A DNA stretch of 64,000 nucleotides, from contig CM059432.1 of assembly GCA_030390025.1 (NCBI GenBank), positions 42,472,001 to 42,536,000 of the forward strand. The letters are read 5' to 3'. This DNA comes from Squalus acanthias. Taxonomy: Eukaryota. How positions within the stretch are numbered: the stretch's first letter is position 1; each line of letters begins with the position of its first letter. This document shows, one piece after another, positions 11,766-57,383 of this stretch. The position numbers and the translations under genes were made by a program. The notes under the pieces were generated by a model that was not told the DNA's origin, searched no databases, and saw nothing but the letters and a program-made list of their open reading frames with translations.

Positions 11766-13299
11766 TTTTTTTTTTAAATGAGCTCAGCAAGAAATGTTGC
11801 CGTAGGTTTCCATCATCAAGATCAGAGTAATTGCTGTGTAAGTGTGATCCAGAAAATTCCGGGTCAATATATCAAGAAAGGAAGCGAAGGCAGTAATATA
11901 ATTGAGGGCTTCAGATGACTTTCATACACATCTCTTGTACACACACAATTGAAGGAATAGAAATCGAATAATACACCAGAAGGAATAGAAAAACACATTT
12001 CTGGTATCAACAAGATTAAAATCTCAGCTCTGAGTTACTGTGAATTCACTGAAAGTATAAATAATGTTTCAGTTAACTAAGAAGTCAACCTTTACATAGA
12101 TAGAGATATAGATCTCTTCAGCCAGACTTGATTGAATAAAGTATGTGAACAGAGCTTCTCAAAAGCGTTAGTGAAACCACTTATTCTGCTTGGCGTTTTG
12201 ACAGCAATGACCTTGTGGATAAAAACCAGAGATCCACGTAGTGGGTAAGAATGAAGAGAACTTCCAGAGTTCTCAGTTGTAGATTGGTATATTAGCCTTG
12301 AGCCCCTTAGGTGAAAAAAAGGACTGGTCATCATCATCCTATCAGCTTTGTGTGACACAGGGAGCCACATGTCTCCGATGAAGTAAATACTAAAGAATGA
12401 ATCTGTGGGGGAAGCTTTCAACAGACACTCAGCACACAGTCCACTGGAATAGCCCAATGCATTACTTTATGAAGCAGTCAAATAGCAGCCTGTTATTCAT
12501 TGCTTCCACTCCAGATGCTGTTTCTATTTCAGAAAACAACTTTGATAAAGTACAGAACATGGCCCACAGTTGGGATGCATCTGGAAAAGATATTATGTAC
12601 AAATGATAAGGATCACAGAGTGAGTTCCTGTGTTTAAAAAGATTAAACAATGCAACTAAAACCACGTTACCTGCAAGAGGGTATCATGTTAAAAAAAATG
12701 AGTAATATGGCATCAATAAGGCACAATTATTATAGTGTATTAGCCTTAAAAGGAAGACAAACATCTATTTCATGTAAAAATAAATCTAACCAACAGAACT
12801 GCTTTTGAAAGGTTACAAGGAATTGTGATTTAACTATTTTTTAAAAGGAGAAGATAAGCATCCTGGGGATTGTCAAAAAATTGCTGCAACATCTCTTATC
12901 TCATGGTGAATAATTATATTTCTATTCATGTCAACCCACTCCTGTCAGCTAATGTCAGAGATGAGGCTTTTAAGTGAGCAACTTCACTGAAAATCCTCCA
13001 GATTAGTACCTGTACTGATCCTGGATGCCAATCAGAAGGTGTTGAAGTCAGCAAAATGCAGTGTCACACAGTACTGCTGTGTAGACTTACCTTCGTGTTT
13101 GCCACGAAAGTTGCTGGTGACACCAGCAACTGGAGTTAACGGCCGCTGAAAATGGCCGCAACGCTAAGGAGAATAAATTCGTCTGGGGTGCTGGAGATTG
13201 GTGGTGCAGCACTAACCTTCCGTGCAACGCCCTCCTGGTGGCGTTAGTGGAGGCCTCCGAAGCGAATTTCCCATCCTGAAGTGGCGTTCGAGCTGCGCA

Positions 13300-15239
13300 C
13301 TTCTCTGGGAGTGAGGCTGTGGAGCTCACTTGGAATTGTGGGCAATTAAAAGGGCTATGAATTAAAGGGGCAATGCACTCAGAAATAATAAAAATTAAAA
13401 TGCAGTGAATAAATGAAGTTTTCAGCCCTTACTGCCTTTCAAAAAAAATTAACATTATAAAGAAGTCCCAAATGTGATTATTCAGCTCTTAAAGCTGACT
13501 TCCCTTCTGACCCTCAAAAAATGGGTAAACTGCTTCAGCACTGATACAAATGGCTCAGCAAGCCAGGGAAGGGCCACCCAGGGTCTCGCACGCAGCACTC
13601 CAGCTTTGTGCAGGGGGTCAACACTGCAAGACAGGTCCTCTACCCACAGGGGCCAGGAGGCCCTCCAGAAAGAAGGATGTGGGACCACATCACTGAGGCC
13701 ATTACTGCCAGCAGTATCACCCCCACCACCTGGCTCCAGTGCCCAAAGAAGCTTCATGACCTCAGACCACTGGTCAAGGTCAGTGAATGCATCTTCAAAA
13801 GCCGTCTCCTACTAACTGCACCACTAACCTCACACACTGCTAAATGCACGACCCGCACACCGCACTACCAACAATCTGCACCAATCACGAGGCACATCTC
13901 CCATTCCTAGCCTCACCTCACCCCCTTGGAGGAGATGGTGCAGGCCATTCTTGGCATGACTGAGCCCTTGGCCAGCGGCGGGGCTGAAAGGATAAAAGGT
14001 GTTGGTATCATCATACATTATCCTCCTTCAGGCAAACACCTTTTGCTTTCCCGCCCGCCCGTCACCACAACTCCACCCTTGTGCCTTCCTCATTTCACCC
14101 ACCCAAGAAATGCAGCCTGCCCAGCCAGTGGTTGACCAAGAAGAGGGAGAGGAAAGTGAAGAAGAAGAAGAAGAAGAAGAAGAAGAAGAAACACTGTCAC
14201 TCGATTTCACACTCCCAGCCACCAGCTCCTCAAGGTCGACCAGCAAGGCTATTTGCAGTGTCCCCCACTGAAAGTCAGCAGCCTTCCACCAGCCATGCTG
14301 CAGTCACTGGGGTAGCACTGCGTGACATCAGTAGGATAGGCAAAGGCACACAGAAGACAGTCACTAAGAGAATGCATAAGGGTGATGAGTTGATTTCTTG
14401 ATGGCATATTGAATGGGTAGATGTATAAAGTTGGATTGGAAGGTATGCTTAGTGGTGGTTTTTATTTCAGCATTGTGGCCAAGAATGCACTGTGATGGTC
14501 AGTAACAGAGGGAAGGTAAAGTGTGGGATAAATGTAGAAATGGGAATTGGGGTTGTGGTCACTGGTACCGCAGGTGGATGATTCCATACCAGATATCCCG
14601 GCCAGGAAGGGGCTGTCTGGGTTGCATCCTTCCTTCTGCTTCCTCCTCTTCGGCTTTTTCCTCTTCTATGTCTTCCTCTTCCCTCTCTAAGTGGATGCTG
14701 TAAATCTGAAATGACAGCATAAAATGCTGGAAATACTCAGTTGGTCAGGCAGCATCTCAACCTCCACGGATGTTGCCTGACCTGATGAATATTTGCAGCA
14801 TTTTCTGTCTTCTCAGAGGTCTTCCTTTACCATCTGAAGCCTTGCAAGCATCCAGCAGCACTCCCTGCACACTTAAAAAAAACTTTTAACATCTATTGCA
14901 GCAAGCCACTACTTCAGTAAAATTTAAAAAAAAACAGTCCAAAAGCTTAAATCCAAACTTACCTGAATGATGTTTGTGTCCCTTTAAGAGGTGTTGACAT
15001 TGCCACTGTCAGCCTGCTTGCATGCCAGGTTTACCTGGCATGCTTAGGACCCAGCGCTAGGGTCGAAGTTCGGACGGTGACGTTAAGTCGGCGTTGCCAG
15101 TTACTGGCAGCGCAAAGGGAAGGAGGAAAATGGTGGTGGCCGCGGGACCCGCCACCAGCTGGCGAAAGAGTGATGTCCGCCATTTTTCCACCATTTCATG
15201 GCACTACGGAGTGGCGGTAAGTAGATGAATTTCTAGTCC
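13300..15239. mobile_element. Decayed Harbinger-family element (Myb gene remnants on +, transposase largely deleted)
   Basis: TWLQCPKKLHDLRPLVK|GTCAGT Myb exon-1 motif, acidic (GAA)n exon, terminal GAATTTCTAGTCC matching the TIR consensus; homologous to 48705-59009. Left boundary approximate. Confidence 0.75.
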
Positions 15240-16142: not shown

Positions 16143-17878
16143 TCACGTCATGTATCGTGACATAAACCCAAGATCCCGATTGAGACCGTCTTCATGAGTG
16201 CAGAACTTGGCTATCAGTTTCTGCTCGATGATTTTGCGTTGTCGTGTGTTTCTAAGGTTGCCTTGGAGAACGCTTACCCGCAGATCCGAGGCTGAATGTC
16301 CTTGACTGCTGAAGTGTTCCCCGACTGGGAGGTAACAATCCTGCCTGGCGATTGTTGCGCGGTGCTCGTTCATACGTTGTCTCAGTGTCTGCATGGTCTC
16401 GCCGATGTACCATGCCGCGGTGCATTCTTTCCTGCAACGTATGAGGTAGACAACGTTGGCCGAGTCACATGAGTATGTACCATGTACCTGGTGGGTAGTG
16501 TCCTCACGTGTGATGGTGGTATCTGTGTTGATGATCTGGCATGTCTTGCAGAGTTTGCCATGGCAGGGTTGTGTGGTGTCGTGGTCGCTGTTATCCTGAA
16601 AGCTGGGTAATTTGCTGCGAACGATGGTACTTCTGAGGTTAGGCGGCTGTTTGAAGGCAAGTAGTGGAGGCGTGGGGATGGCCTTAGCGAGGTGTTTGTC
16701 GTCATCGATGACATGTTGAAGGCTGCGAAGAACATGTCGTAGTTTCTCCGCTCCGGGGAAGTACTGGATGACGTAGGGTACCCTGTTGGTTGTGTCCCGT
16801 GTTTGCCTTCTGAGGAGGTCTATGCGATTTTTCGCTGTGGCCCGTCGGAACTGTCGATCGATGAGTCGAGCGTCATATCCCGTTCTTACGAGGGCGTTTT
16901 TCAGCGTCCGTAGGTGTCCATCGCGTTCCTCCTCGTCTGAGCAGATCCTGTGTATTCGCAGGGCTTGTCCATAGGGGATGGCTTCTTTAACATGGTTAGG
17001 GTGGAAGCTGGAGAAGTGGAGCATCGTGAGGTTGTCCGTGGGCTTGCGGTAGAGTGAAGTGCTGAGGTGTCCGTCTTTGATGGAGATTCGTGTGTCCAGG
17101 AATGAGACCGATTCTGAGGAGTAGTCCATGGTGAGTTTGATGGTGGGATGGAACTTGTTTATGTTATCGTGTAGTCTTTTCAGTGATCCTTCGCCATGGG
17201 TCCAAAGGAAGAAAATGTCGTCGATGTATCTGGTGTACAGCGTTGGCTGGAGGTCCTGTGCAGCGAAGAAGTCTTGCTCGAACTTGTGCATGAAGATGTT
17301 GGCGTATTGGGGTGCGAATTTGGTCCCCATGGCTGTTCCGTGTGTTTGGGTAAAAAAATGGTTGTCGAAGGTGAAGACATTGTGGTCAAGGATGAAGCGG
17401 ATGAGTTGTAGGATGGCGTCTGGAGATTGGCTGTTGTTGATGTTGAGTACTGAGGCTGTTGCAGCGATGCCGTCATCGTGGGGGATACTGGTGTAGAGTG
17501 CCGATACGTCCATCGTGGCAAGGAGTGTTCCTGGTTCAACTGGTCCGTGGGTGCTGAGTTTCTGTAAGAAGTCTGTAGTGTCGCGACAGAAGCTGGGGGT
17601 TCCCTGTACGATGGGTTTCAGAATGCCCTCGACGTATCCAGAGAGGTTCTCACACAGGGTTCCATTGCCTGATACGATAGGACGTCCGGGTGTGTTGGCT
17701 TTGTGTATCTTTGGGAGGCAGTAGAAGTCTCCCACGCGGGGAGTACGTGGGATGAGAGCGCGTAGGATGTTTTGAAGGTCTGGATCGAAGGTCTTGATCA
17801 GTCTATTGAGTTGGCGGGTGTGTTCTTTGGTCGGATCTGCGGGTAGCTGTCTGTAGTGTTCCTGGTTGTCCAGTTGTC
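16143..17878 (-). CDS. Penelope-type reverse transcriptase + GIY-YIG endonuclease (N-terminally truncated, uninterrupted frame)
   Basis: FYCLPKIHK, GRPIVS, MDVSALYTSI, GTAMG, RYIDDIF, FLD, YRKPTD; VVYLIRC..C...WYIGET..LRQRMNEH...GLN; the frame is open upstream of the listed start up to the TSD. Confidence 0.9.
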
Positions 17879-18504
17879 CAATAAAAGGATGTCAGTGCAA
17901 GCCCATGATACTTAAATCACCTGCACCCAGAAATTCACCCCCTCTCGAGAACTGACTCCACCCGACCTACCATCTTACGAGCCTGGAGGCCAGCTGGGCT
18001 GCCAGAGATCCCGGGGAGTTGGAGCCAGCGGGTAACCCAGGCGCTCTCATTTTCCACCCGCAGCCCACTGGTCACACAGCTGGCAAAGATAGGAGACTTT
18101 CAAGTCATTCATTAGGGCTGGACTTATGTCCCAGAGATGAAAATGTAATATTCCAAGCTCCCGTGCCACTCCTGCCTTCTGTTAATCGTTTAGTTATTTA
18201 TTTGTTGAAACAGTGCTGCCGATGACATCAGGCTAGTTGGTTCGCAGGAGGTATTGAGCCTGGCAGTTTAAGGCAGTTAAATTAGCATGCACTGTTAAAG
18301 TGACAGTTGTTGAAATATCCTAGGTTAATGAATGTGTGTGTAATTAGGTTATTTGTGTTTCCAAGTTAATTAACTCCTCCAAACAAGTTAGATTGATATC
18401 ACCAATACTCACTATTTCAAAAACAATAGGGGAAGATTCACTCTGTTCGCTATGTGTGAGCAACACTATAAACATAATGGAAATTTCCTTTGATGTCTAC
18501 TGGT

Positions 18505-18717
18505 GTCAGTCGTGGCTCAGTGGGTAGCACTTTCGCCTCTGAGTCAGAAGGTTGTAGATTTATAGTCCCACTCCAGAGACTTGAGCACAAAAAAATCTAG
18601 GCTGACTGAGGGAGTGTTGACTGTTGAGTGTTGTCTTTCAGATGAGATGTTAACCTTATGTCTGCTCTCTCAGGTGGACATAAAAGATCCCTTGGCACTA
18701 TATCAAAGAAGGGCAGG
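18505..18717 (+). mobile_element. Deu-domain SINE, 5' half (tRNA-derived head)
   Basis: A-box TGGCTCAGTGG, tRNA-like head, Deu core; continues at 20720 after the Penelope insertion (GGAG TSD). Confidence 0.75.
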
Positions 18718-20352
18718 GGAGATCTTCCCCCCACGGCTGCCAACCTCATAGTTCCCCAACCCCGCACAGCCCGCTTCTACCTCCTTCCCAAGATCCACAA
18801 ACAGGACTGCCCTGGTAGACCCATCGTTTCAGCCTGTTCTTGCCCCACGGAACTTATCTCTTCCTATCTTGACTCTATTTTTTCTCCCCTTGTCCAGTTT
18901 CTTCCCACCTACACCCGCGATTCCTCTGACGCTCTCCGCCACTTTAACAGTTTCCAGTTTCCTGGCCCCAACCGCCTCCTTTTCACCATGGACGTACAAT
19001 CCCTCTACACCTCCATCCCCCACCAGGATGGCCTGAGGGCGCTCCGCTTCTTCCTTGAACAGAGGCCCAACCAGTCCCCATCCATCGCCACCCTCCTCCG
19101 CCTGGCTGAACTTGTTCTCACATTGAACAACTTCTCCTTTGACTCCACTCATTTCCTCCAAATCAAAGCTGTTGCTATGGGTACCCGCATGGGTCCTAGC
19201 TATGCCTGCCTTTTTGTGGGATATCTGGAACACTCTTTGTTCCAGTCCTACTCGGGTCCCCTCCCTCACCTCTTTTTCCGGTACATTGATGACTGTATCG
19301 GTGCCGTTTCCTGCTCTCGCCCTGAACTAGACAATTTCATTCACTTTGCCTCCAATTTCCACCATTCCCTCACCTTCACATGGTCCATCTCCGACTCTTC
19401 CCTTCCCTTCCTCGACTTCTCCGTCTCCATCTCTGGGGATAGGTTATTGACCAACATTCACTACAAGCCCACTGACTCCCACAGCTACCTGGACTACACT
19501 TCCTTCCACCCCGCCTCCTGTAAGGACTCTATTCCATTCTCCCAGTTTCTCCGTCTCTGTCACATCTGCTCTGATGATGCCACCTTCCATACCAGTGCTT
19601 CCGACATGTCTTCCTTTTTCCTCAACCAAGGATTCCCCTCTACCGTGGTCGACACGGCCCTCGACCGTGTCCGTTCTATCTCCCGCACTTCTGCCCTCAC
19701 CCCGGCCCCTCCCTCCCGGAACCATGATAGGGTTCCCCTTGTCCTCACCTTTCACCCCACCAGCCTCCACATTCAACGGATCATCCTCCGCCATTTCCGC
19801 CACCTCCAGCGTGATCCCACCACCAAACGTATCTTCCCCTCACCTCCCCTTTCAGCATCACGTAGGGACCGCTCCCTCCGAGGCACCCTAGTCCACTCCT
19901 CTATCACCCCCAGCACCCCTTCCCCCTCGCCCAGCACCTTCCCATGCAAGCGCAGGAGATGCAACACCTGCCCTTATACATTCCCCCTTCCCACTCTCCA
20001 GGGCCCCAAACACCCCTTCCAGGTGAAACAGCGATTTACTTGTACTTCTTGCAATCTAGTATACTGTATTCGCTGCTCACGATGTGGTCTCCTCTACATT
20101 GGGGAGACCAAACGCAGATTGGGTGACCGCTTTGCGGAACACCTCCGTTCAGTCCGTAAGGGTGACCCCGAGCTTCCGGTCGCTTGTCATTTTAATTCAC
20201 CTCTCCACGCCCACTCAGACCTCACCGTCCTCAGCCTCGTGCATTGTTCCACGGAAGCTCAGCGTAAGCTCGAGGAACAGCACCTCATCTTCCGATTAGG
20301 CACTTTACAGCCTTCCGGACTCAATATCGAGTTCAACAATTTCAGATCATAA
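18718..20352 (+). CDS. Penelope-type RT + GIY-YIG endonuclease (N-terminally truncated)
   Basis: FYLLPKIHK, GRPIVS, MDVQSLYTSI, AMGTRMGP, RYIDD, YKPTD, LVYCIRCSRCGLLYIGETKRRL..RFAEH, GLN. The first 20 aa of the listed ORF are SINE-derived. Confidence 0.9.
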   Translation, partial: GDLPPTAANLIVPQPRTARFYLLPKIHKQDCPGRPIVSACSCPTELISSYLDSIFSPLVQFLPTYTRDSSDALRHFNSFQFPGPNRLLFTMDVQSLYTSIPHQDGLRALRFFLEQRPNQSPSIATLLRLAELVLTLNNFSFDSTHFLQIKAVAMGTRMGPSYACLFVGYLEHSLFQSYSGPLPHLFFRYIDDCIGAVSCSRPELDNFIHFASNFHHSLTFTWSISDSSLPFLDFSVSISGDRLLTNIHYKPTDSHSYLDYTSFHPASCKDSIPFSQFLRLCHICSDDATFHTSASDMSSFFLNQGFPSTVVDTALDRVRSISRTSALTPAPPSRNHDRVPLVLTFHPTSLHIQRIILRHFRHLQRDPTTKRIFPSPPLSASRRDRSLRGTLVHSSITPSTPSPSPSTFPCKRRRCNTCPYTFPLPTLQGPKHPFQVKQRFTCTSCNLVYCIRCSRCGLLYIGETKRRLGDRFAEHLRSVRKGDPELPVACHFNSPLHAHSDLTVLSLVHCSTEAQRKLEEQHLIFRLGTLQPSGLNIEFNNFRS

Positions 20353-26401: not shown

Positions 26402-27581
26402 ATGGGGGCTCTACTTGCAGTCCCCCTGGCACTGCAGCATGACAAGGAGATGGAGCAGAGGCTGCAAAGAGGAGGACAAGCTGCTCGCAGAGGGAGGAGG
26501 AGGAGAGGCAGGTGGGCCCTCAGCAGGAGGCCTTACCCACCTAGGGTCATCTGAGAGCACTTCTCCGACCTGCACTTAAGCCAGGAGCAGTGTATTCGAA
26601 GGCTCCGCTTCACCAAGCAGTTTGTCACAGAACTCTGCCACCCCTTGGAACGAGACCTATAGCCTCAGAACAGGGGGATGACGGCGCTGCCAGTGGCCCT
26701 CAAGGTGACCGAGGCACTGAATTTTTTTGCCACCGGATCCTTCCAGTCTGGAGCAGGCGACATAGCTAACGTCTCCCAGTTCACCGTCCATCGCTGCATC
26801 CGGGAGGCCATAGAGAGTCTGTACTCCAGGAGAAGGGACTTCATTATCCTCTCTCTGAACAGAGAGATGCAGGAGGAGCGCGCATTTGGCTTTGCCAGGA
26901 TATCAGGCTTCCCCATGGTGCAGGGCGCCATTGACTGCACGCGTGGCCTTTTGGGCACTGCATATCAATCCTGAGATGTACCGCAACCACAAAGGCTACC
27001 AATCACTTAATGTGCATTTGGCGTTTGACCACGGCCTACACATCATGATGGTGAATACCCTATATCCTGGCAGCAGTCGGGATGCCTTCAGTCTGTGCCA
27101 GTCTGATGTGCCAGCAATCTTTCAGCCACCACGTCGAACCCAAGGGTGGCTGCTTGGAGACAAGGACTATCTGCTCTACACCTTGCTGATGACTCCCCTC
27201 CGCAACCCCACCACTCGGGGCCAGCAGTCATTTCACGACAGCCATGCTGTCACAAGGAACTTCATCGAGCAGACCATCGGGGTGCAAAAGCAATGGTTCC
27301 ACTGCCTTGACTGCTCGGGAGGAGCCCTCCAGTACACACCGGAGTGGGTGTCCCATTTCGTGGTGGTCTGCTGCATCCTCCACAACTTGGCCATCATGAG
27401 GCCGCAGCCCTTGTCACCACGGGTTCGGTGACCACGTCAGGAAGAGGAGGAGGAGGAGGAAGAGGAGGAAAAAGAGGAGGAGGAAGAGGAAGAGGAAGAG
27501 GAAGGGAGGAGGCAGGCAGCAAATCCCCGTTCCGGATGGGCTGTCCGTGATCACGTAATCAGACCCTGGTTCCAAAGAATG
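26402..27581 (+). pseudogene. HARBI1-like Harbinger transposase pseudogene
   Basis: VALKVTEALNFFATGSFQ, GFPMVQGAIDCT, GWLLGDKDY, IEQTIG, CCILHNLA; stops and frameshifts. Confidence 0.9.
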
Positions 27582-27751
27582 AAACCCCAGCTCCCTGTTG
27601 CTCAATACTTCCCCACCTTATCATCCCTCTGTCATGGAACATCGCAGCGTCCTCTTGGGCACAATGCTGAAATGAGAGCCACCATATAACAAACATTCCA
27701 AACATAATTTATGAATGATTCAATCCAGTACTACATAACAAATTCAATTAA

Positions 27752-29675
27752 TCACCCTTCTGCATTCCCTTAGTGTCTGCTTTTCATGTTCCTTTGCCTA
27801 TTCTAGTGCTCCTGCGCAGTGCTACCCCAATGGCTGCATTATGGCTGGTGGAAGGCTGCTGAATTTCCATGGATGAGACTGCAGATAGCATTGCAGGATA
27901 ACCTCAAGCAGCTCTGGGCCTAGAAGGCCCGGCTGTAGACTGCATTACCTCGGCATGGGCGGCAGCAGTCTGGGATGGCTGGCTGGTTGCTAGGCAGCAG
28001 CAAGGGCACTGGTGGAGTGGCAGTGGTGGGAGTACGAATGCTGTCATCCTGATAGAGGACAGCAGGTTCTTGCTCCACGGAGCCACTGCCATTCCCCTGG
28101 GGCGGCGCCTCAGCATTTCTAGCCATCTGTTGGAGGACAGATTGCTGGACTGCTGTGAGACCCTGCAAGCCCCTTTCTGTGTTCATAAACCCGGCCACGA
28201 TGGCATCAGTCCGAGCTTGCATGGCACCAAACTGAGCCTGCGTGAGAGCAGTTTGAGCTTCCACTGCAGCCCTCAGACGTTGAGTCGCTTCCACCTGTGC
28301 TGCAATGGAAGCTGCAGCATCACCCATCACACCCAGCATCATGGTTGAGTCCACAAGTGCTCTAACGGAGTTGTCCATCACTTCCATCCTGGAAATCATG
28401 GGCTCCAAGCTCCACGTAAAGCCCCATGCAATGTTGGAGCCGGACTCCTCCATGCTCCTTGACAGTGACTGGAGGCTGCCTGGCAGACCAACCATTGCAC
28501 CAAGCATTTCTGTGTGCATGCCCATTACCCTTCTTCTGAAGGCTGCCCCATCGAATCCTCATCTGAGTCCTGTGCAACAGAACTTGTGTGCGAACTCGCC
28601 CTCCAGGGCACTGGCACCTGAGCTACCCTTTCCCCCTGGCCTGGCTGCAGCCCACTCGTGCCCAGTGACTCACCACGTGCAGATCCCGCCTCTATACTAC
28701 CCTCTAAAGTTCACACAGTGCCATTTTCTGAGCTGGTGCCTGGGAGTGTCAGATCGAGTGATGGTGCCTCTTCTTCCCCATCACTCTCCTCCTTTGGTTG
28801 CTCGGGGACAGGCTGGGCTGCTGGCAGTTCTTGGGTAGCTGAAAGGAGAAAGGCACAAGGGTCGGGTTGTGGTGAGGGGAGGCAGGGAAACAAGATGTGC
28901 ATGCTTACACCATCAGCAGGATGTAAGTGAGAAGAGATTGTGCAATGAGGGGAAAGTGGGATGTGAGAAGAAGGATTAGGTATGAGCATAAAGTCATCAG
29001 CAATGCTTTCAACCTCGCCACTCGCCAGGGCATTAGCAACAGCCCCTCCAATTATCTCCAGCACAGTCTCCTCCAGCGCAGTAAGGTTCTGCAGATGTGC
29101 TTCACCCCTGTTTGTTTGTTGCTGCCCACAGCGGTTGTGAGCCATCTTGGCCTGCAGGAGAAAGGGAAGTGTGTCAGAGAGTGTGGTGCAATGTATTTGG
29201 GTGATGTACCTGTCATGGTTGAATAGCTGACATTGTGTGCAAGGTGTGAAATGTGGGTGTGAGGCTTGCAATAGTGGTAAGTGTGTGAGGGTTAGGTGAA
29301 GCTATGATTGTGAGGTATGAGTCATGATTGCTAGAAATTCTTGGTAGCTGAGTGATGGGGGTGTGGTGCTTCGAACAGTGTGTGAGGCTAGTGGTGCAGA
29401 TGTGGGATATGGCATTTGAAGATGCATTCACTCAACTTGATCACTCGTGTGAGGTTATTAAACTTCTTGCGGCACTGGATCCATGTCCTGGGGGCAACAC
29501 TGCTGGCACTGATGGCTTGGGCTATCTCCTCCCACTGCCTTCTGGTGTTCTGTGTGGAAGGCCTCCTGCCCCTCTGCGGGTACAGGATCTGATGTCTTCT
29601 GTGCACCCCCAGGACCAAGGCCGCCAGTGCCGCATTTGAGAAGCGCTGTGTCCTTCCTCTTCCCTGTTGCGACAT
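27752..29675 (-). pseudogene. Harbinger Myb/SANT partner pseudogene (multi-exon)
   Basis: RFSNAALAALV...WEEIA...RTWIQCRKKFNNLTR; exon 2 AKMAHNR; exon 3 GMHTEMLGAM; homologous to 32271-34396. Confidence 0.85.
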
Positions 29676-31720: not shown

Positions 31721-32270
31721 GAGTCGAGCAGCGGCAGCAGCGGGAGCGGCGGCAGAATTCGAGAGTGACGTCACAGTACAGAAAGTTACGCCGGCGCAGG
31801 GGAAGAAGCTGATTGGTGAGTAGTGGGTGAGTGCTTTTATTTTTCTTCAATTTTAAGTTTATTTCTTTTAAGGCAGTTCATAGTTAAGGTAGTTCGGGAG
31901 AGTGAGAATCCAAGGGGTAGAAATTAGGTCGCGCCCCATTTGGGGCGCAAATATCGTCCGTGCGCAAATATTAGCGCCTGGCGCTAATTATCGGCACTGA
32001 CAGGAAACTTCACTTTTACCGCCCCGGGAGGTGAGTGGAGCGCTAAATTAGGCGCTGCACACCTCTCTTAAGGCGCAAAGGCCTAGGAGTGAGGCGCTAC
32101 CTCAGCGCACGAGCGCAGCGCAGCTGCTGCCAGTTAGCGAGGGAACACAGACACACTGGCGCCGGACACTTCTTAAAGCGGGGGGGGCCACTTGCTCCCC
32201 AGCCACACCCTGCTCATTGCAGCCTTGAATCTCAGCCTGGAGAGACCTGTAATCCATTTTGCTGCCAAGC

Positions 32271-34396
32271 ATGGAGAGGGTGAGAGAACGCGCTCATCGC
32301 TTCACCGAGCGGGCCTTGGATGCTCTGGTTGACGCAGTGGAGCGCAGACGATGCATGCTGTTCCCGGAGAGTGGCAGGAGGCCTTTGCCACGCGAGTTCA
32401 GAAGAGTGTGGAGGGAGGTGGCTCAGAGCGTCTCCTCCAGGAGCATGGTGCCCAGGACCCATGTCCAGTGCCGCAAAAAGTTCAACGACCTCACTCGGGT
32501 CGTCAGGGTGAGTGGCTTTTTCTCAATACCTCTCCATCCCTCCATCTCAACCTCACTCTATGGCCAGAGGGTCTTAAAACCCCAATGCACAACACTCATG
32601 CAACACCTATGGCCCTTTCATCAAACACACACACACATTCCACACTTTGCATACAGTAAGGGCTATTCACCTATGGGAGGCACATCAGGCAAGACCATGG
32701 CTGCATATTGTAAGGGCTATTCACCTATGGGAGGCACATCAGGCAAGACCATGGCTGCATATTGTAAGGGCTATTCACCTATGGGAGGCACATCAGGCAA
32801 GACCATGGCTGCATATTGTAAGGGCTATTCACCTATGGGAGGCACATCAGGCAAGACCATGGCTGCATATTGTAAGGGCTATTCACCTATGGGAGGCACA
32901 TCAGGCAAGACCATGGCTGCATATTGTAAGGGCTATTCACCTATGGGAGGCACATCAGGCAAGACCATGGCTGTATATTGACTCAGATGCTGTCCTTTTT
33001 CTTGCAGGCTAAGCTGGCTCATAATCGGAGACAGCAGCAACGGACGGGTGGAGGGCGGCTTCAACTGCAACCCCTCAGCGATCTGGAGGAGCGCGTCCAC
33101 AGGATTGTGGCAAGCCGGGTGATCGGTCCCGTCGCCACTGGAGACGCCGACCCCGTTGTGGACAGCAATGGTAAGGTCATCACCTTTTTGTCCTCTGTCC
33201 TTCCACTTGTCCCTCACAATACCAGCCTTTGACACTTTCAATCCAACTTGCTAACTCGCTGCACTTATTCCTCCCTTACTGCCACCCTGTCCTCACGCTA
33301 AAGCCACTCTTGTACCTCCCTGCTTTCAGATGGTGATTCACCAGCTGAGGAGATGGTCCCTGAAGCTGCCACTGGGAGTGATGCTGCAGCTGAGGAGGAA
33401 GAGGAAGCCGGAGCATCAGTGCCACCCTCTCCCGAGGAAGCCCATGGCCACACTGGGAACACGCCTTCCCCGGAGGGGAGCAGGGGGGAAGGGGCTGATG
33501 ATGGTGAAGTTCCAGGACCCAGCGGGCTGCAGCAACGCCATTGGGGGGGGAGGGAAGAACGGGGGAGCAGGGGGGAAGGGGCTGATGATGGTGAAGTTCC
33601 AGGACCCAGCGGGCTGCAGCCACGCCATGGGGGGGGGAGGGAAGAACGGGAGCCTTCTCCCCAGAGGGAGAGTATGCCAGACACTCCTAATGCAATGGAC
33701 GCAGAGGAGGAGCGGCTGATTGCAGAAATGAACAGCCAGGCGGTGGGCATGCACACTGAGCTCATGGGTGCAGTGGGAAGGGTGCCCGAATGCATTGAGG
33801 CACTGGCAAGGAGTGTGGAGCACTTCGCTGTAGCACAGGCGGATGCCACACTAAAGCTTACTGCTGCAATTCAGTCACTGGCTGCCAGGAATCCATCTGA
33901 GACTGCTCTCATGCAGACTCAGATTGAGGCCACGCGAGCACTGACTGCTGCCATCCTCGATGGTTCGTGCACATGTCCCCGGGGCTGTCACCGCGCCGCA
34001 GCAGGCCAGCAATCTGTTCTCCGGCAAATTGCTCCGGATGCTGAAGTGCTGCCCCGTGGGAGTGCCAGTGTGTCGGGCGAGCAGGGAGTTGCTGTCCTCT
34101 CTCACGATGACAGCATTCCTGCTGCCAACACTGTCACTTCTCCACTGCACTTGCCACCGCCTGTAGGACAGACTGCTGCCGCCCATGCAGAGTTGGTGCA
34201 GTCTGCAGCCGGGCCCTCCAGGCCCAGAAGTGGTCGAGGCCGTCCTTCAGGGGCATCTGCAGTGTCAGGGTCTGACAAGCAGCAGCCTTCCACCAGCCTT
34301 GCTGCAGCCACTGAGGTCCCATTACGGAGGAGCAGTAGGGTTAGAAGGGGGGAAGTGCGCAAGGGAAGGAGATCACCCTCGAAGGGCAAAAAGTAG
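32271..34396 (+). CDS. Harbinger Myb/SANT-like (trihelix) DNA-binding protein, 3 exons: 32271-32507, 33008-33170, 33330-34396; 488 aa
   Basis: RFTERALDALV...WREVA...RTHVQCRKKFNDL motif; GT-AG introns (AGG|GTGAGT..TTGCAG|, G|GTAAGG..TTTCAG|) join in frame (237+163+1067 nt); RTGGG motif; basic C-terminus. Confidence 0.88.
32656..32979 (+). repeat. 54-bp minisatellite x6 in Myb-gene intron 1
   Basis: Unit GTAAGGGCTATTCACCTATGGGAGGCACATCAGGCAAGACCATGGCTGCATATT; five identical units, one substitution in the sixth. Confidence 0.97.
33476..33649 (+). repeat. 87-bp in-frame tandem duplication in Myb exon 3
   Basis: GSRGEGADDGEVPGPSGLQxRHxGGREER x2; single copy in the sister element. Confidence 0.93.
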
Positions 34397-34690
34397 GAGG
34401 TGTGCCAAAATGCTGGTCATTTTTTTATTAAAGGCCGAGGTTCATGGCCCAACTTTTGTTTAGTGTTTTGGACATTATCTCCAGGTTGTGAGAACCAGTT
34501 ATGTTATTGACTGTTTTTTTGTGTTTATTTCTATGAGTTTGTCATGAGGAATTGACACACACAGAGTTTGTACAATAAATAAGTTTCTGTATTCAAAATA
34601 TACATGGCTGGTGGTTGGAATTATTGGTGCCTTGGCCGGCTTAGGGGTTGCGTGCTGGGTTGATTCGTGTTTGTAGCACTGGCAGGGGCC

Positions 34691-35851
34691 CTAGAAGCGG
34701 CTTGCTATTAGTCGTTGACGGACGGCCCTTGCAGTTTGACCATTGTGGGCCGCCCTCCTGCCTTGGTGCTGCTGCTGATCATCGTCCTCGGCCTGTTCCT
34801 CCTCTTCCTCCTCCTCCTCTTGTGGTGCTGCAAGGCCTGGTGGCATTGGCTGCGTCCTGAGGATTGCCATGTTGTGCAACATGCAGCACACCACTACGAA
34901 TTTGGAAACTTGCTCAGGCAAGTACTGCAGGGCTCCTCCGGAATGGTCCAGACAGCGGAATCGTTGTTTGAGCACGCCGATTGTGCGCTCAATAATGTTC
35001 CTCGTTGCTTGTTGGCTTTCCTGGTACCGCAGCTCAGCAGGGGTGTTTGGCGCACGGAGCGGTGTCATCAGCCAGGTGCTCAATGCGTACCCCTTGTCCC
35101 CCAGAAGCCAACCAACTGGCTGATGCGGTGCCTCGAAAATTTCTGCCACAGTACTCTGGCGCAGGATGAAAGCATCGTGGCAGCTGGCCGGATAGTGGGC
35201 ATTGACAGCGAGAATCACCTGTCTGTGGTCACAGACCAACTGCACATTCAAGGAATGGAACCCCTTTCTGTTCCGGAACTCCTCTGCATTCTCTCGCGGA
35301 GCACGCAAAGCCACATGCGTGCAGTCAATGGCGCCCTGCACCATGGGGAAGCCCGCTACCCTCGCAAAGCCCATAGCACGGTCATGCTGCTTGTCTGGGG
35401 TCATAGGGAAGGAGATGAAGTCTCGTCTCCTTGTGAAGAGGGCATTGGTGACCTGCCGGATGCAGCGATGCACCGCAAACTGGGAGATATTGGCGAGGTC
35501 CCCAACAGCAGCTTGGAATGAGCCAGTGGCGTAGAAGTTCAAGGCCACTGTGACCTTCACTGCCACCGACAGAGACGTCCTGGACCTCAGCTGAGGCTGC
35601 AGATCTGGCTGCAGCAGGTGGCAGAGCTCAGTGACCACCTCCTTGCTGAATCGCAGCCTTCGCAAACACAGCTCCTCGGACATGTGGATGTAGGAGAGCT
35701 GTTCACGATATACCCTGGGAGGGTAAGCTCTCCTGTACATGCGCCTGTTGGGCCTCCTCCGTCTGGCCATCATTGCCACTCTCTGTCTGCGTCTCACTCT
35801 CCTCCGATTGAGCTGGAGCAGGACGACGCCCCCAATCATTGCAGCCCCCAT
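34691..35851 (-). CDS. HARBI1-like Harbinger DDE transposase, 386 aa
   Basis: Uninterrupted ORF with GAIDCTHV, NRKGFHSLNVQLVCD, HDAFIL, LLGDKGY, IERTIGVLKQRFRCL, CCMLHN. Confidence 0.95.
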   Translation of the reverse strand: MGAAMIGGVVLLQLNRRRVRRRQRVAMMARRRRPNRRMYRRAYPPRVYREQLSYIHMSEELCLRRLRFSKEVVTELCHLLQPDLQPQLRSRTSLSVAVKVTVALNFYATGSFQAAVGDLANISQFAVHRCIRQVTNALFTRRRDFISFPMTPDKQHDRAMGFARVAGFPMVQGAIDCTHVALRAPRENAEEFRNRKGFHSLNVQLVCDHRQVILAVNAHYPASCHDAFILRQSTVAEIFEAPHQPVGWLLGDKGYALSTWLMTPLRAPNTPAELRYQESQQATRNIIERTIGVLKQRFRCLDHSGGALQYLPEQVSKFVVVCCMLHNMAILRTQPMPPGLAAPQEEEEEEEEQAEDDDQQQHQGRRAAHNGQTARAVRQRLIASRF

Positions 35852-36405
35852 CTTCTCTTTGCCAGAAAAGTAATGAGGTACAGCAACGAAAGTAGCAGCA
35901 AAGTTAGGATGAACTAGGCAAAACTACCTCACAAAGCGTTGAGTCAATGTAGAAGTCTCTCTCTCTCTCTCTCCGAATCTCTCTCTCTCTCTCAGAACGA
36001 GTGGTGCATAAATGTCGACCACAGAAAAAGACAGGAAGAGGCCCCCTTTAAATAGCGCCCCCCCCCAGCCCCACACCGATTGATAACGTTCCAGTCTTCC
36101 GGTCGTTGGAAGCGCCAGGCGGTAAGGCAGGGGGCGCCACTCAATTTCCGCTCCGGGGCGCCCCAAGGGCGTTGCACCACGGACTGACGTCACAATCTGC
36201 GCGCGCAGGTGGTCGCAGCGGTAAGTTTTAGCGCCGCCGCACAATCTCAAGTTAAGTTCTCGAGCGGCGCAAACAGCGCTGCGCCCGGGCGTTAGCGCCT
36301 TAACGCCCCATTAGCGCCCATTTAAGGCGCTAACGGGAGGCGCAACCAACTGAATTTTTACCCCCAAGAGTTTAAATTTGAGGTAAGAGTTTTTTAATTA
36401 AAAGT

Positions 36406-37950
36406 ATGGCAGGGGACCTCAGTCCCATGTGTTGCACGGCCTGCAGCATGTGAGAATTCCTAGAAGCAGTCAGGATGACCACATGTGCAGTAAGTGCCAA
36501 CGGTTTGGCCAACTTGAGATCCGGTTTTCGGAGCTCGAGCGTTAGCTGGAGGCACTGTGGTGTATCCGCGAGGCTGAGAGTTACATGGATAGCACGTTTT
36601 TAGACGTGGTCACCCCGCAGCTTAAGGAAGTGCAGTCAGAGAGGGAATGGGAGACCACCAGTCAGAAGAAGGGGGGCAGGCAGGTAGTCAGGAAAGCCCC
36701 AGAGTGCATCTCACTCAACAACCGTTTTTCTGTGTTTGGAAAACAGTGAAAGTGACGGTTCCTCTGGGGATGCAGCCAGAGCCAAGTTCACGGCACTGTG
36801 GGTGGCTCAGCTGCACAAGGGGGGAGGAGTAAGAGTGGAAGGGCAATAGTGGTAGGAGACTCAATAGTGAGGGGTGCAGACAGGCGTTTCTGCGGCCGCA
36901 GACGTAACTCCAGGATGGTATGTTACCTCCTTGGTGCCAGGGTCAAGGATGTCACTGAACGGCTGCAGGGTATTCTGAAGGGGGAGGGCAAACAGTCAGA
37001 GGTCATGGTTCACATTGGTACCAACGACATAGGTAGAAAGAGGGATGAGGTCCTGCAACAAGAATTTAGGGAGCTAGGTAGCAGATTAAAAAGCAGGACC
37101 TCAAAGGTTGTAATCTCTGGATTACTCCCGGTGCCATGTGCTAGTGAGTATAGGAATAGGAGGATAGAGCAGATGAATGCGTGGCTCGAGTTGGTGCAGG
37201 AGGGAGGGCTTTAGTTTCCTGGATCACTGGATCTGTTTCTGGGGAAGGTGGGACCTGTACAAGTCGGGCGGGTTGCACCTGAACTGGAACTTGCTGCAGT
37301 TGTACAGGGCCTTGGTGAGACCACACCTTGAGTATTGTGTGCAGTTTTGGTCGCCTTATCTGAGGAAGGATGTTCTTGGCATGGAGGGAGTGCAGCGAAG
37401 ATTCACCAGACTGATACCTGGGATGGCAGGAATGAAGTATGAAGAGAGATTGGGTCGATTAGGCTTATATTCGCTACAGTTTCGAAGAATGAGAGGGGAT
37501 CTCATTGAAACTTATAAAATTCTAACAGGACTAGACAGACTAGATGCAGGAAGGATGTTCCCGATGGCGGGGGAGTCCAGAACCAGGGGTCACAGTCTAA
37601 GGATAAGGGGTAAGCCATTTAGGACTGAGATGAGGAGGAATTTCTTCACCCAGAGAGTGGTGAACCTGTGGAATTCTCTACCACAGAAGGTAGTTGATGC
37701 CAATTCATTAAATATATTCAAGAAGGAGTTAGATATATTTCTTAAGGCTAAAGGGATCAAGGGATATGGGGAGAAAGCAGGGACAGGGTACTGAATTTGG
37801 ATGATCAGCCATGATCTCATTGAATGGCGGAACAGGCTCGAGGGGCCGAATGGCCTACTCCTGCTCCTATCTTCTATGTTTCTATGTTTCTATGGAACGG
37901 GACCAACATCCTTGCGGGGAGGTTTGCTAGTACTGTTGGGGGGAGGTTAA
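36406..37950 (+). pseudogene. CR1 ORF1 (Cys-rich N-terminus + SGNH esterase-like domain), disrupted
   Basis: MAGDLSPMCCTACSM*, VVGDSIVRG, HIGTND, GLHLN; premature stop, frameshifts and a nested insertion. Confidence 0.85.
37291..37892 (+). mobile_element. CR1 3' fragment nested in CR1 ORF1
   Basis: TGGAAC TSD (37285-37290, 37893-37898); same subfamily as 25349-26108 and 49683-54906. Confidence 0.93.
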
Positions 37951-38059
37951 ACTAACTTGGCAGGGGGATGGGATACGGAGTGGAGCTATAGTAGGGGGTG
38001 ATGCACAGCCAAATATAGAGGAAAAAACAAGTCAGCCTGGAAGGCAGAGCAAATATGTA

Positions 38060-40808
38060 ATGGCACAAGGGAGTCTGGCAAGGCTGGGTGGCATTTATTT
38101 TAATGCAAGGAGTCTTGCAAGTAAGGCAGATGAATTGAAGGTGTTGATGAACACATGGGAGTATGATATTGTTGCTATCACAGAGACATGGTTGAGGGAG
38201 GGGCAGGACTGGCAGCTCAATATTCCGGGGTATAGAATCTTCAAGCGAGACAGAGGGGGGTGTAAAAGTGGAGGGGGTGTCACAATATTAATCAAGGAGT
38301 CAATTACGCCTGTAAGGAGGGATGATATCTTAGCAGATTCCTTTAATGAGGCCATATGGGTAGATCTTAAAAACAAAAAGGGGGCAAGCACTTTGCTGGG
38401 AGTGTACTATAGGCCCCCAAACAGTCAGTGGTAGATAGAGGAACAGATATGTAGGCAAATCTCAGATAAGTGTAGAAATAATAGGGTAATAATAGTAGGG
38501 GATTTCAACTTCCCCAATATTAACCGGGATAGTCAGAGTGTGAAAGGCTTAGAGGGTGCGGAATTCTTAAAGTGCATCCAGGAGAGCTTTTTGAGCCAGC
38601 ATGTAGAAAGTCCTACAAGAGAGGGGGCGGTACTGGACCTAATTCTGGGGAATGTAGCTGGGCAAGTGGTAGAAGTGTCAGTAGGAGAGCATTTTGGTGA
38701 CAGTGGCCATAATTCGGTGAGATTTAAGGTAGTCATGGAAAAGGACAAAGATGGACCAGAAATAAACATTCTAAATTGGGGAAAGGCCGATTTTAAGATG
38801 ATAAGGCAGGATCTGGCCAAAGTGGACTGATTTCAGCTACTTGTAGGAAAATCCACATCAGAGCAGTGGGAGTCATTCAGAAAGTAAATAGAGAGAGTAC
38901 AGCGCCAACATGTTCCCGTAAAGGTCAAGGGTGGGACCAACAAGTCCAGGGAACCCTGGATGTCAAGGGATATACAAGAATGGATTAGGAAAAAAAGGGA
39001 GGCTTTTGGCAGATACAAAGGACTAAAAACAGTGGAAGCCCTAGAGGAGTATAGGAAGTACAGGGGGGTACTTAAAAAAGAAATTAGGAGAGCGAAGAGG
39101 GGGCATGAAAAAACACTGGCGGGCAAAATAAAGGAAAATCCCAAGGTGTTTTATAAGTATATTAAGGACAAGAGGATAACCAGGGAAAGAGTAGGGCCCA
39201 TTAGGGACCAAAGTGGCAATCTGTGTGTAGAGCCGGAAGATGTGGGTGAGGTTTTAAATTAATATTTTGCATCTGTGTTCACTCTGGAGAAGGACGATGT
39301 AGGCATAGAAATCAGGCAGGGGGATTGTGATATACTTGAACAGCATTGAGAGGGAGGAGGTACTAGCAGTTTTAGCGGGCTTAAAAGTGGATAAATCCCC
39401 AGGCCCAGACGAGAGGTAACCCAGGCTGCTGTGTGAGGCAAGGGAGGAGATTGCACGGGTTCTGACACAAATTTTCAGAACCTCTCTGGCCACAGGGGAG
39501 GTGCCAGAGCACTGGAGGACAGCTAACGTGGTACCATTATTCAAGAAGGGTTGTAGGGATAAACCAGGGAATTACAGGCCAGTGAGCCTAACATCAGTGG
39601 TAGAGAAATTATTGGAAAAAATTCTGAGGGACAGAATTAGTCTCCACTTGGAGAGGCAAGGATTAATCAAGAATAGTCAGCATGGCTTTGTCAGGGGGAG
39701 ATCATGTTTAACCAATTTGATTGAATTTTTCGAGGGGGTGACTGGGTGCGTGGATGAGGGTAGTGCTGTTGATGTAGTCTACATGGACTTCAGTAAGGCT
39801 TTTGACAAAGTCCCGCATGGGAGACTGGTCAAGAAGGTAAGAGCCCATGGGATCCAGGGTAATTTGGCACATTGGATCCAAAATTGGCTTAGTGGCAGGA
39901 GGCAGAGGGTGATGGTCGAAGGCTGTTTTTGTGACTGGAAGCCTGTGTCCAGTGGTGTACCGCAGGGATCGGTGCTGGGACCTTTGCTGTTTGTAGTGTA
40001 CATTAATGATTTAGATATGAATGTAGGAGGTATGATCAGTAAGTTCGCAGCTGGAGTGGTAAATAGTGAGGAGGGGAGCCTCAGGCTACAGGACAATATA
40101 GATGGGTTGGTCAGATGGGCAGAACAGTGGCAAATGGAATTTAACCCTGACAAGTGTGAGGTGATGCATTTTGGGAGGACTAACAAGGCAAGGGAATACA
40201 CAATGAATGGTAGGACCCGAGGAAGGACAGAGGATCAGAGGGACCTTGGTGTGCATGTACATAGATCCCTGAAGGCAGCAGGACAGGTAGATAAGATGGT
40301 TAAGAAGACATATGGGATACTTGCCTTCATTAGCCGAGGCATAGAATATAAGAGCAGGGAGGTTATGATGGAGCTGTACAAAACGCTAGTTAGGCCACAG
40401 CTGGAATACTGTGTGCAGTTCTGGTCACCACACTATAGGAGGGATGTGATTGCATTGGAGAGGGTGCAGAGGAGATTCACCAGGATGTTACTTGGGCTGG
40501 AGCGTTTCAGCTGTGAAGAGAGACTGGCCAGGCTGGGGTTGTTTTCCTTAGAGCAGAGAAGGCTGAGGGGGGACCTGAGTGAGGTGTACAAAATTATGAG
40601 GGGCATAGATAGGGTAGATAGAAATGAACTTTTCCCCTTAGTAGAGGGGTTAATAACCAGGGGGCATAGTTTCAAGGTAAGGGGCAGGAGGTTTAGAGGG
40701 GATTTGAGGAAAAACTTTTTCACCCAGAGGGTGGTTGGAATCTGGAACTCACTGCCTGAAAGAATGGTAGAGGCCGGAACCCTCAACATTCAAGAAGCAT
40801 TTAGATGA
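38060..40808 (+). pseudogene. CR1 ORF2 (APE endonuclease + RT), disrupted
   Basis: Several stops; RT FADD motif deleted (SKFAAGVV versus SKFADDTKIGGVV in the sister copy). Confidence 0.92.
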
Positions 40809-47250: not shown

Positions 47251-48590
47251 GGCCGAGATTTTACTTACCTTGGCGAGTCTGGTGCGGCCGGGGTTGGTGT
47301 CGGGTCACGACCCCGCTGCTAGCTCCATCCCGCTCTGGAAAATGAATTTCCATTGATAAGGCTTATTAAGCCCACCCAGCGCGCTTCCCGGTCCAATTAA
47401 AGGAAGTGGGTCTGGTGACGTCATTCATGACGCGTCATCAGCCGGTTTCCTTAAAGGGACCATGGCCACCTTACTTTTAACATTTGTGCTGTCAGTGTTC
47501 TACAGCACTGAAGTGCTGCAAACACTGACAAGCACTGCACAGAGGTGCAGGGCTGCACCCAGGCTCTCCCATGACTCCCTCCATATGCTTATGGAGGGAG
47601 TCACAGCACACAAGGAGGTCCTCTTCCCTTCTGATAGGTGGAAGAGACCTTTCCAGGAGACCAAGACAGCCTGGTTGCAGATTGCAGAGGAGGCCACAAG
47701 CATGGATGTCATTGGGAGGACAAGGCTGCAGTGGCGCAAACCTTTCAATGATCTCATTAGATCATGAAATGTTAGTACAAAGCCACACTCACCTTAATCC
47801 TGCTGTGCCTCTCATCACATCCCCATCACTCTGCCTTCTCTACCCTACTCCTGCACATCTATACTCACACCAACTTACCTTGCACCTCACCCATCCCTCT
47901 CTATCTACATTATCACATCCCCATCTCACTAGCCACCCCTCACACTCACCCTCATCCTAGTCCAATCATACCAACTAACAACACACAAGGGTAGCCACTT
48001 GGGTGCTTTATCAAATGTTTATGTAAAGTTTCTGTTAATGTGCTGTCAAACATTGAAACCTTTATTTTCAACACTTTGCGTTCTTGGACAGATTTGTGTG
48101 CACCTTTGGAAGTGGCTTAGCGAGTTGCAGTGAATGGTGAGACATAACCGTACCCCCCGCAATGGTGGTGAGTGGGAAAGGAATGGCTTGGGCATTGTAG
48201 GGATGCTTTATGATGTTGGTGTGGGGTGGTGCCAACTTGGCACATCATGTGGCAGCCAGGGTGTACAGCATCAAGTGAAGTAAATTTGGCCATGGTGAGG
48301 CCATCCCTGGCCTCCCGGGCAGCAATATGCTCGGGTGCTGATGCCCTCTGTCCTGTGCAGCATCAGGTGATTGCGGAGAAGGTTGATGTTGTTGTTGGTG
48401 CTGCTGGTGTGCCTGGTGCTGCTGGTGTTGGGGCTGATTGTGGTCAGATTCTGAGGACCAGGGTGAGACAGTATAAAGGGCACCCATGTTGATGGAATAG
48501 ATGGCAGGTGAGGTAGAGATGACAGAAGCATTCTGTCAATGGTGAGAGAGTTCTTCCAATGAGGTAAGAGTGGATGGTGGGTGGAAAGCC
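47251..48590 (+). mobile_element. Harbinger fragment (left end + Myb exon 1)
   Basis: GGCCGAGATTTT TIR-like start; RLSHDSL...AWLQIAEE...RTRLQWRKPFNDL; no right TIR found. Confidence 0.7.
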
Positions 48591-56727: not shown

Positions 56728-57383
56728 TCCGAAAGCTTGTGATTTCAAATAAAACTGTTGGGGGGAAAAATTCAGCTGCTTGCGCCTCCCGTTAGCGCCT
56801 TAAATGGGCGCTAATGGGGCGTAAAGCAGCTAACGCCCGGGCGCAGCGCCGCCCACGCCTCCCGAAAAATTTAGTGGGAGGTTAGCGGCGGCGGCAGCCG
56901 GTAGCGCCCTGTGGCGCTGCGCCGCCGGCGATGACGTCATCGCCGTGCGCAGCGCCCCGCTCGCGCCCCGGCCGTGATCTTCAGTCGCGCCCCCTGATTT
57001 ACCGCCAGACGCTATGTCCGACGGGTTCAGGGGGGCGTACGTGCGGCCGGGGCGGCGATATTTAAAGGGGAGGTGGCAGGCGGCCATTTTTGTTGCTGGC
57101 CGCCTGCCAGCACCTGCCCCCGTGGCTGTCCCCGGCCCCCGTGAAGCCCCCCCAGCGTGAAGTGCCGGCTGCGCTCCAAGAGCCCGGCACTTCTCTTGAG
57201 TGCCGGGCTCTTTTGCCGGCACTCCCGATCCCTGGGAGCCCAGCTGGGCCCCGGTTCGCGCTGCGCAAGGCCCCTCCCCTTTAAGAAGGGGAGGAAGGCC
57301 TGCAATACCGCGGCGCGACGTGCCGCAGCGCGTGGCGCTGCGGCACGTAGCGCTATAACCTGGTGTTGTGCGACCTCTCAATT
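56728..57383 (+). mobile_element. Short Penelope pLTR fragment interrupted by a Harbinger end fragment (56761-57352)
   Basis: 56728-56760 and 57353-57383 match the rc of 15716-15780; the inner segment starts GGGGGAAAAATT and resembles 1156-1255. Confidence 0.8.

Follow-up and report, generated by a model that had tools for sequence, protein, structure and literature searches.

Does a shark genome hold a natural copy of a two-gene Harbinger transposon that is still able to move? The question is raised by a 4451-bp element at positions 31914-36364 of a 64,000-nucleotide stretch of Squalus acanthias DNA (assembly GCA_030390025.1, contig CM059432.1, positions 42,472,001 to 42,536,000 of the forward strand; the whole stretch is called here the window), which a preliminary description had presented as apparently intact and possibly active. 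Our results indicate a genuine full-length elasmobranch PIF/Harbinger element that would work like Harbinger3_DR of zebrafish, present here as a young copy from a minority lineage; the copy itself appears to have begun to decay and is probably weakened or silent now.

Structure of the element and its boundaries

The element carries two genes arranged tail to tail, with a DDE transposase on the minus strand and a Myb/SANT-like gene on the plus strand. It ends in terminal inverted repeats (TIRs) of 12 bp, the left one agreeing at 11/12 positions with the right one read as its reverse complement; the first 15 nt of the two ends match at 13/15, and past approximately 15 bases the ends are unrelated. 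The triplet CAA found directly outside each end forms a target-site duplication (TSD) of 3 bp. A TIR match of at least 11/12 is expected by chance with a probability of 2.3e-6 and a 3-bp match with 0.016, both values being calculated from the base composition of the window and referring to boundaries picked after the fact. With its DDE transposase, Myb/SANT second open reading frame (ORF), TIRs and 3-bp TSD the element shows the features of the Harbinger superfamily in the broad sense, its TIR being shorter than the 25-50 bp described as usual for the superfamily (PMC9179366).

For the following comparisons, public contigs of four sequencing runs (X1, X2, X6 and X17) were aligned to positions 32981-36900, from shortly before exon 2 to beyond the right TIR, and the summed contig depth was used as a proxy for family abundance, not copy number. 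The right boundary is placed by the homology of a deleted derivative at 1156-3218, which stops exactly there, by a 74%-identical relic end that stops at the same point, and by the summed depth, which in two DNA runs falls from approximately 1.2-1.3 million in one bin to 8,000-15,000 in the bin that follows. The left boundary is placed by the TIR and TSD only. At the right junction no listed piece from samples S1 and S2 spans by 31 letters on each side, and such holes prove nothing. An empty site for the CAA duplication, in the form of an uninterrupted CR1 leader, was sought in the 64-kb window and was not found.

Between the two stop codons lie 294 bp, in which AATAAA was seen at 34574 and TTTATT at both 34424 and 34524. 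The ends of the element are rich in CpG, the observed/expected (o/e) ratio being 0.86 and 1.2 vs. 0.42 for the whole window. The TIRs, the TSD, an uninterrupted transposase gene, a spliceable Myb/SANT gene placed tail to tail with it, the signals in a gap of roughly 295 bp and a very similar derivative at 1156-3218 had all been named in the preliminary description, and each was recovered in our analysis. Its placement of the element in the 5′ untranslated region of a CR1 retrotransposon fits the right side, where an ORF1 remnant, an endonuclease and a reverse transcriptase follow; the insertion lies just upstream of the decayed ORF1, whose likely ATG is at 36407. For the left flank, which has no uninterrupted paralogue in the window, identity with the CR1 leader or 5′ untranslated region is plausible.

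Target preference and candidate Myb-binding sites

The heptamer GGCGCTA is present three times in the left 350 bp and five times in the right 350 bp of the element, with no copy in the inner 3.75 kb. All 15 of the 15 occurrences in the window are located in Harbinger ends, which make up 2.2% of its length, and 3 of the 15 fall in the 74%-identical relic end, which was not used for the choice of the motif. GGCGCTA is the best candidate for the binding site of the Myb-like protein and likely serves as such.

The published target of Harbinger3_DR reads AAACAC-CWG-GTCTTT (PMC3016246). When the six bases 3′ of the triplet were compared with its flank, matches were seen at 5/6 positions for the window copy, 6/6 for the derivative, 6/6 for an insertion found in X6 and 4/6 for one found in X17. 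The four right flanks agree at a total of 21/24 bases (P ~3e-9 against the window background), while the left flank of the window copy agrees at 3/6 only. The X6 and X17 insertions come from two of the listed loose ends, to which 985 unlisted ones are to be added, and their register follows a convention checked on X6 record 30. The duplicated triplets are CAA (window copy), GTT, CTT, CTT and CAA (relic), four of the five being seen on one side only. Neither the TWA of strict PIF/Harbinger in the PHIS classification (0/5) nor the CWG of NuwaI (0/5) was found among them, and they appear to resemble CWG with a relaxed third base.

Both proteins are described as required for transposition in the superfamily, the Myb-like protein binding the ends and the transposase and enabling nuclear import of the latter, excision being usually precise and the target preference in vertebrates spanning 15 bp (PMC2836001; PMC9179366). 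If the roles known from Harbinger3_DR hold here by analogy, the Myb-like protein would bind the repeated GGCGCTA near both ends, associate with the transposase and carry it into the nucleus, and the DDE transposase would cut at the 12-bp TIRs. Insertion would then take place into a preferred target of approximately 15 bp, with duplication of its central 3 bp; the present copy would have inserted itself into an older CR1, within its leader.

The Myb/SANT-like gene

The plus-strand gene is plausibly composed of three exons, with a predicted product of 488 amino acids (AA) and both introns of the GT-AG type. The splice positions agree with a diverged relic in the window, which has an exon-2 acceptor (~29150) at the same position together with a decayed donor, and with two database gene models in which the Myb domain is followed by the exon-2 peptide (comparison by eye). 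In a BLASTP comparison, exon 2 and the database protein P0121 did not match significantly (E 0.47). None of the listed runs with the element is recorded as RNA. The contigs of X17, whose RNA nature is a guess, cover the element including intron 2, and 0/15 of the joints listed skip this intron, with 24 more outside the listing and 1 dropped; this observation speaks neither for nor against expression or splicing.

Intron 1 contains a minisatellite at 32648-32980 (6.2 copies of a 54-bp unit, 98%) that ends approximately 27 bp 5′ of the acceptor. Retention of this intron would keep the frame open through the minisatellite, giving 236 AA. In exon 3 we observed an in-frame tandem duplication of 87 bp (33475-33650), apparently common to the nearest other copy, as X6 record 26 shows approximately double depth there.

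The transposase

The transposase is an uninterrupted 386-AA protein with a DDE_Tnp_4 domain. For its comparison the best 120 of 306 protein relatives were examined, 112 of which bear shark or ray names, the best with 65% identity. The protein agrees with its relatives at 132/138 columns conserved at 70% or more, ranking 2nd of 76 well-covered sequences, and its fold is predicted with confidence, with a mean predicted local distance difference test score (pLDDT) of 80.7 and a predicted template modelling score (pTM) of 0.78. All four acidic residues are kept in the shark element and in only 40/120 relatives; in the other 80/120, one or more of them is missing or falls outside the part covered. 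Most of those shark and ray relatives look like decayed copies or host genes. At the catalytic Glu288, Lys or Arg is present in 23/117 relatives. Pairs from different sharks (P0009/P0012, P0038/P0040) look orthologous, and some of these relatives may be Harbinger-derived host genes.

A search for near-identical proteins found none, the longer database proteins giving 1 match (50%) and the shorter ones 46 matches, with no close full-domain one. A sequence search of solved structures gave no match (the best, at E 0.34, was an aldolase and is a chance hit), and Foldseek returned no solved structure at E<=0.001, most of its top rows being DDE transposases and integrases. Upstream of the transposase start, after the TATA-like motif (36047), lies a five-codon ORF (36009-35992, minus strand) that could damp translation of the transposase.

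A large family and a minority lineage

Summed depth over the element reaches 88,000-1,430,000 in X1 and X2 vs. 8,000-57,000 over the CR1 flank, that is roughly 10-50x the flank in the two DNA runs. This excess, together with the drop at the right TIR, indicates a very large family. The 20,850 contigs of X1 that were aligned comprise 4012 at least 99% alike, 7157 of 95-99% and 9681 of 90-95%, and such a spread over identity classes shows that the family spans a range of ages. Among the 24 runs listed, part of the element is present in 20, and half or more of the words sampled from it in 16; the runs holding it come from six organism labels and 10 studies, and no run holds more than 0.88 of the words. 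We rejected the idea that the element arose by faulty assembly, as 16/24 runs contain at least half of its words.

The same data bear on the idea of a domesticated host gene pair of the HARBI1/NAIF1 kind instead of a mobile element. Relatives of the transposase are named 'putative nuclease HARBI1', and Harbinger-derived host genes exist in cartilaginous fish (PMC9392472). Such a gene pair would not be expected to show TIRs and a TSD, to be inserted beside a LINE (long interspersed element) ORF1, to have a 2.6% diverged paralogue in the same window or to have very deep multi-copy cover, with other copies in different flanks. We consider domestication extremely improbable, as the multi-copy cover and the different flanks effectively refute it.

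At several positions (35752, 35852 and others) the contigs of X1 and X2 mostly carry the base of the 1156-3218 derivative (86-100%), and X6, a small contig set of 184 records from organism B, carries the base of the window copy. The window copy is thus a member of a minority lineage, which was also seen under another organism label. Between this copy and X6 records 25-28 there are differences at 14/3007 letters (~99.5% identity), and these records represent the nearest copy seen, compared with 97.4% for the copy in the same window; the derivative differs at 54 substitutions in 2066 aligned bases (2.6%). Over 32981-35348, approximately 4 differences fall on the window branch and approximately 5 on the X6 branch, or 0.17-0.21% each. 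At the mutation rate of the epaulette shark, 7e-10 per site per generation (PMC10587355), the two copies would have split 2.4-3.0 million generations ago (1.2-15 million over the confidence interval of the rate), as a crude estimate. With an age of millions of generations at so slow a rate, open reading frames are expected without present activity, and we take the frames of this copy to be open mainly because the insertion is young relative to the slow shark clock.

Rare residues and the state of the copy

Allele counts were drawn from 40 of 155 variant rows. Among these, four sites have at least 99% of the depth on a base other than that of the window copy, namely 33064, 34920 and 35187 (4/4 runs each) and 33892 (3/4 runs). 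Two of the changes are silent and two alter the transposase, as S311L and G222A. At 35187 the family base, which restores Gly222, accounts for at least 99.9% of the depth in all 4 runs. Residue 222 is Gly in 103/119 close and 36/42 distant relatives, with Ala in 1 and 0, respectively; among the 40 relatives with all four acidic residues, Gly is present in 37 and Ala in none. In the predicted model Gly222 is located in the loop between strand 213-221 and D226. We also found Gln at positions 277 and 280 of the helix leading to E288, in place of Asn (103/118) and His (94/118), so that G222A, N277Q and H280Q are substitutions at conserved positions of the transposase. The X6 copy shares Q277/Q280, since its piece covering 34834-35348 differs from the window copy at two sites only, both accounted for.

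Because rare alleles occur at four sites, two of them altering the transposase, the earlier suggestion of possible activity is weakened, and the 2.6% divergence of the derivative lends it no support. Inactivating substitutions in a consensus comparison had been named beforehand as grounds for refuting that suggestion; G222A and S311L go part of the way, as their inactivating effect is putative. With these two changes the copy appears to have begun to decay, and it serves as a good template for the family, not as evidence of present activity.

Full competence of the copy, with a lineage transposing now or very recently, would make it a natural autonomous vertebrate Harbinger. It would agree with the two open frames, the canonical splice sites, the four acidic residues, the second rank in conserved columns, the CpG-rich ends and the relative at ~99.5%, and the finding that no run holds more than 0.88 of the words would fit an insertion unshared by those samples. 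We nevertheless regard it as unlikely: four rare alleles are present, one at the near-invariant Gly222; the closest copy seen carries another organism label, and this speaks for an origin earlier than a species split, not for a recent jump; and no identical copy was found among the contigs compared, no whole-genome search having been made.

Replacement of the conserved Asn and His by Q277/Q280, here as well as in the X6 copy, could alternatively mean that the transposase of the majority family acted in trans to mobilise a minority lineage which by then was already weak in catalysis, or was a mosaic. Mobilisation in trans has been reported for PIF/Harbinger elements (PMC13668399). If the majority family has Q277/Q280 too, the residues would be tolerated family signatures, and the fact that both ORFs are still open suits selection in cis. 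This scenario appears quite improbable.

Several observations weigh against our preferred explanation, a young copy with its decay begun. The exchange of Gly for Ala is small, and Ala222 also occurs in one relative (P0118); Leu311 is present in 8/102 relatives. At 35187, the depth that does not carry the family base amounts to 926 in X1 and 225 in X2, above a single-copy contig, so the Ala222 allele may be rare rather than private, with room for a few other carriers. The age is derived from 4-5 substitutions, from the mutation rate of a different shark and from the nearest copy seen; nearer ones may exist.

Features of the locus and other elements in the window

Coordinates of the element and its surroundings are collected in Table 1. 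The host CR1 is itself interrupted, as a fragment of the CR1 reverse transcriptase 3′ end is present at 37177-37794 between the ORF1 remnant and the endonuclease, by nested insertion or rearrangement. The 1156-3218 derivative has kept the transposase-side end only and has lost the whole Myb-side end and approximately 926 bp of the transposase.

Table 1. Positions in the window of the Harbinger element, its parts, its host and its deleted relative.
Feature	Position	Strand	Evidence
Left target-site triplet CAA	31911-31913	+	Sequence outside left TIR
Left TIR, 12 bp, starting GGGG	31914-31925	+	11/12 vs. right TIR
Left subterminal region, CpG-rich; GGCGCTA at 31972, 31980 and 32093 as candidate Myb-binding sites; TATA-like motif at 32171	31926-32263		Putative binding
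Exon 1 of Myb/SANT-like gene, DNA-binding domain	32271-32507	+	Pfam PF13873 (Myb_DNA-bind_5), E=1.3e-9; GT donor
Intron 1, with minisatellite	32508-33007	+	GT-AG
Exon 2	33008-33170	+	AG/GT ends; relic acceptor; two database gene models
Intron 2	33171-33329	+	GT-AG, predicted
Exon 3, with 87-bp tandem duplication	33330-34396	+	Sequence
Shared 3′ gap, poly(A)-like signals on both strands	34397-34690		Sequence
DDE transposase, 386 AA, with D176/D226/D252/E288	34691-35851	-	Pfam DDE_Tnp_4 PF13359, E=4e-36; no internal stop
Codon 311, Leu here vs. Ser in family	34919-34921	-	Allele depth
Codon 222, Ala here vs. Gly in family (P-G-S-x-H-D loop)	35186-35188	-	Allele depth, relatives
Right subterminal and transposase promoter region, 5 GGCGCTA, TATA-like motif at 36047	36015-36352		Sequence; CpG o/e ~1.2 in last 300 bp
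Right TIR	36353-36364	-	TIR match, depth drop
Right target triplet CAA and 6-bp flank, 5/6 vs. Harbinger3_DR target flank	36365-36373	+	Motif from PMC3016246
Host decayed CR1 LINE: GDSL-esterase ORF1 remnant, endonuclease, reverse transcriptase	36374-40808	+	Sequence matches
Deleted one-ended relative of the same family, with majority alleles at e.g. 35752, 35852	1156-3218	-	2.6% diverged

Harbinger relics are dense across the window. The region 26519-29660 holds an older, full-length-like relic of a different family, also with tail-to-tail genes; its transposase protein is 53-62% identical and frameshifted, the donor of its Myb exon 1 has decayed to TT, and its ends were not recognised. At 56761-57013 lies a transposase-side end of 74% identity that has a TIR, a CAA triplet and three GGCGCTA, and transposase fragments lie approximately 3 kb beyond it (~60112-60453), possibly as parts of one interrupted relic. 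More Myb-like fragments and a TIR-like start were seen at 13545-14347, 47360-47767, 48705 and 57964-58095. Besides these, two long open Penelope-like reverse transcriptase frames of 582 and 568 AA are placed head to head at 16143-17891 (minus strand) and 18646-20352 (plus strand), the second with a weak GIY-YIG match. Their CpG o/e of 0.91 and 0.63, vs. 0.42 for the window, suggests that they are possibly young.

Significance of the element

For an elasmobranch Harbinger family the element offers a concrete model over the full length, which comprises its ends, the candidate sites for Myb binding, the splice structure and the preferred target. It is conceivable, though we consider it rather doubtful, that two-component elements with natural competence survive in the family, be it this copy or its 99.5% sisters, with a Harbinger3_DR-like target of approximately 15 bp, a relaxed C-W-W core and GGCGCTA as the Myb site. 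If so, transposition of a vertebrate Harbinger could be demonstrated with a natural sequence, and a lineage once reported to be without PHIS elements would supply an integration tool that selects its target sequence. Natural members that work in cells would add a two-component vertebrate system with extended target preference, of modest potential as a tool. Caution is needed, as millions of generations can still lie behind open frames and 99.5% identity in sharks.

Comparison with known Harbinger elements

Ping and Pong were named as the only naturally active members as of 2010 (PMC2836001), and an active nematode Harbinger was reported in 2026. For cartilaginous fish, PHIS elements were reported absent from sharks in a 2015 survey (PMC4482050), later genome papers list the superfamily in the annotations of the whale shark and grey reef shark, with one line each, and a 2022 study found no Harbinger in the elephant shark and stated that more cartilaginous fish should be examined. 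Among the titles and abstract openings searched, with subscription papers mostly outside, we found no detailed shark Harbinger family and no assayed natural vertebrate Harbinger.

Proteins annotated as 'putative nuclease HARBI1' in Pristiophorus, Heptranchias, Mobula, Narcine, Scyliorhinus and other elasmobranchs belong to the same transposase clade, with 45-65% identity, and none among the best 120 of 306 is near-identical to the transposase of the shark element.

NuwaI, a group of the PHIS elements found mostly in bony fish (PMC4482050), resembles the shark element in TIRs of 12-61 bp starting with GGG, in DDE and Myb/SANT ORFs and in animal hosts, and its mean length is ~4462 bp vs. 4451 bp here. 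Eleven NuwaI families with both ORFs intact were called potentially active in the same work. As the group is defined by a CWG TSD and 0/5 of the triplets conform to it, the element was not filed as NuwaI; the comparison was made by description, not phylogeny.

Harbinger3_DR and Harbinger3N_DR share with the shark element the two genes (DDE and Myb-like), the 3-bp TSD and the extended target preference, the four right flanks matching G-T-[C/G]-T-T-T at the 21/24 bases given above. The core is CWG in Harbinger3_DR vs. CAA, CTT, CTT, GTT and CAA (relic) here, the likeness being drawn from published description, without sequence alignment. As the preliminary description had correctly stated, Harbinger3_DR was rebuilt from a consensus and needs both proteins (PMC2836001); it was shown to transpose, whereas the shark element is a natural copy known from sequence alone.

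A counterpart among natural elements is Harbinger-Snek of sea kraits (PMC8437027), likewise a high-copy two-gene element with natural intact copies and deleted derivatives, for which activity was proposed. Fully intact copies number 269 in L. colubrina and 1 in L. laticaudata, the latter with RNA reads over both genes. Natural intact vertebrate Harbinger copies are therefore already published: the shark copy is, as was first described, natural and full-length with two open ORFs, and it is not new in kind, nor is rarity supported. Harbinger-Snek entered snakes by horizontal transfer, whereas the closest relatives of the shark element are other elasmobranch proteins, which fits a long residence of the family in sharks and rays.

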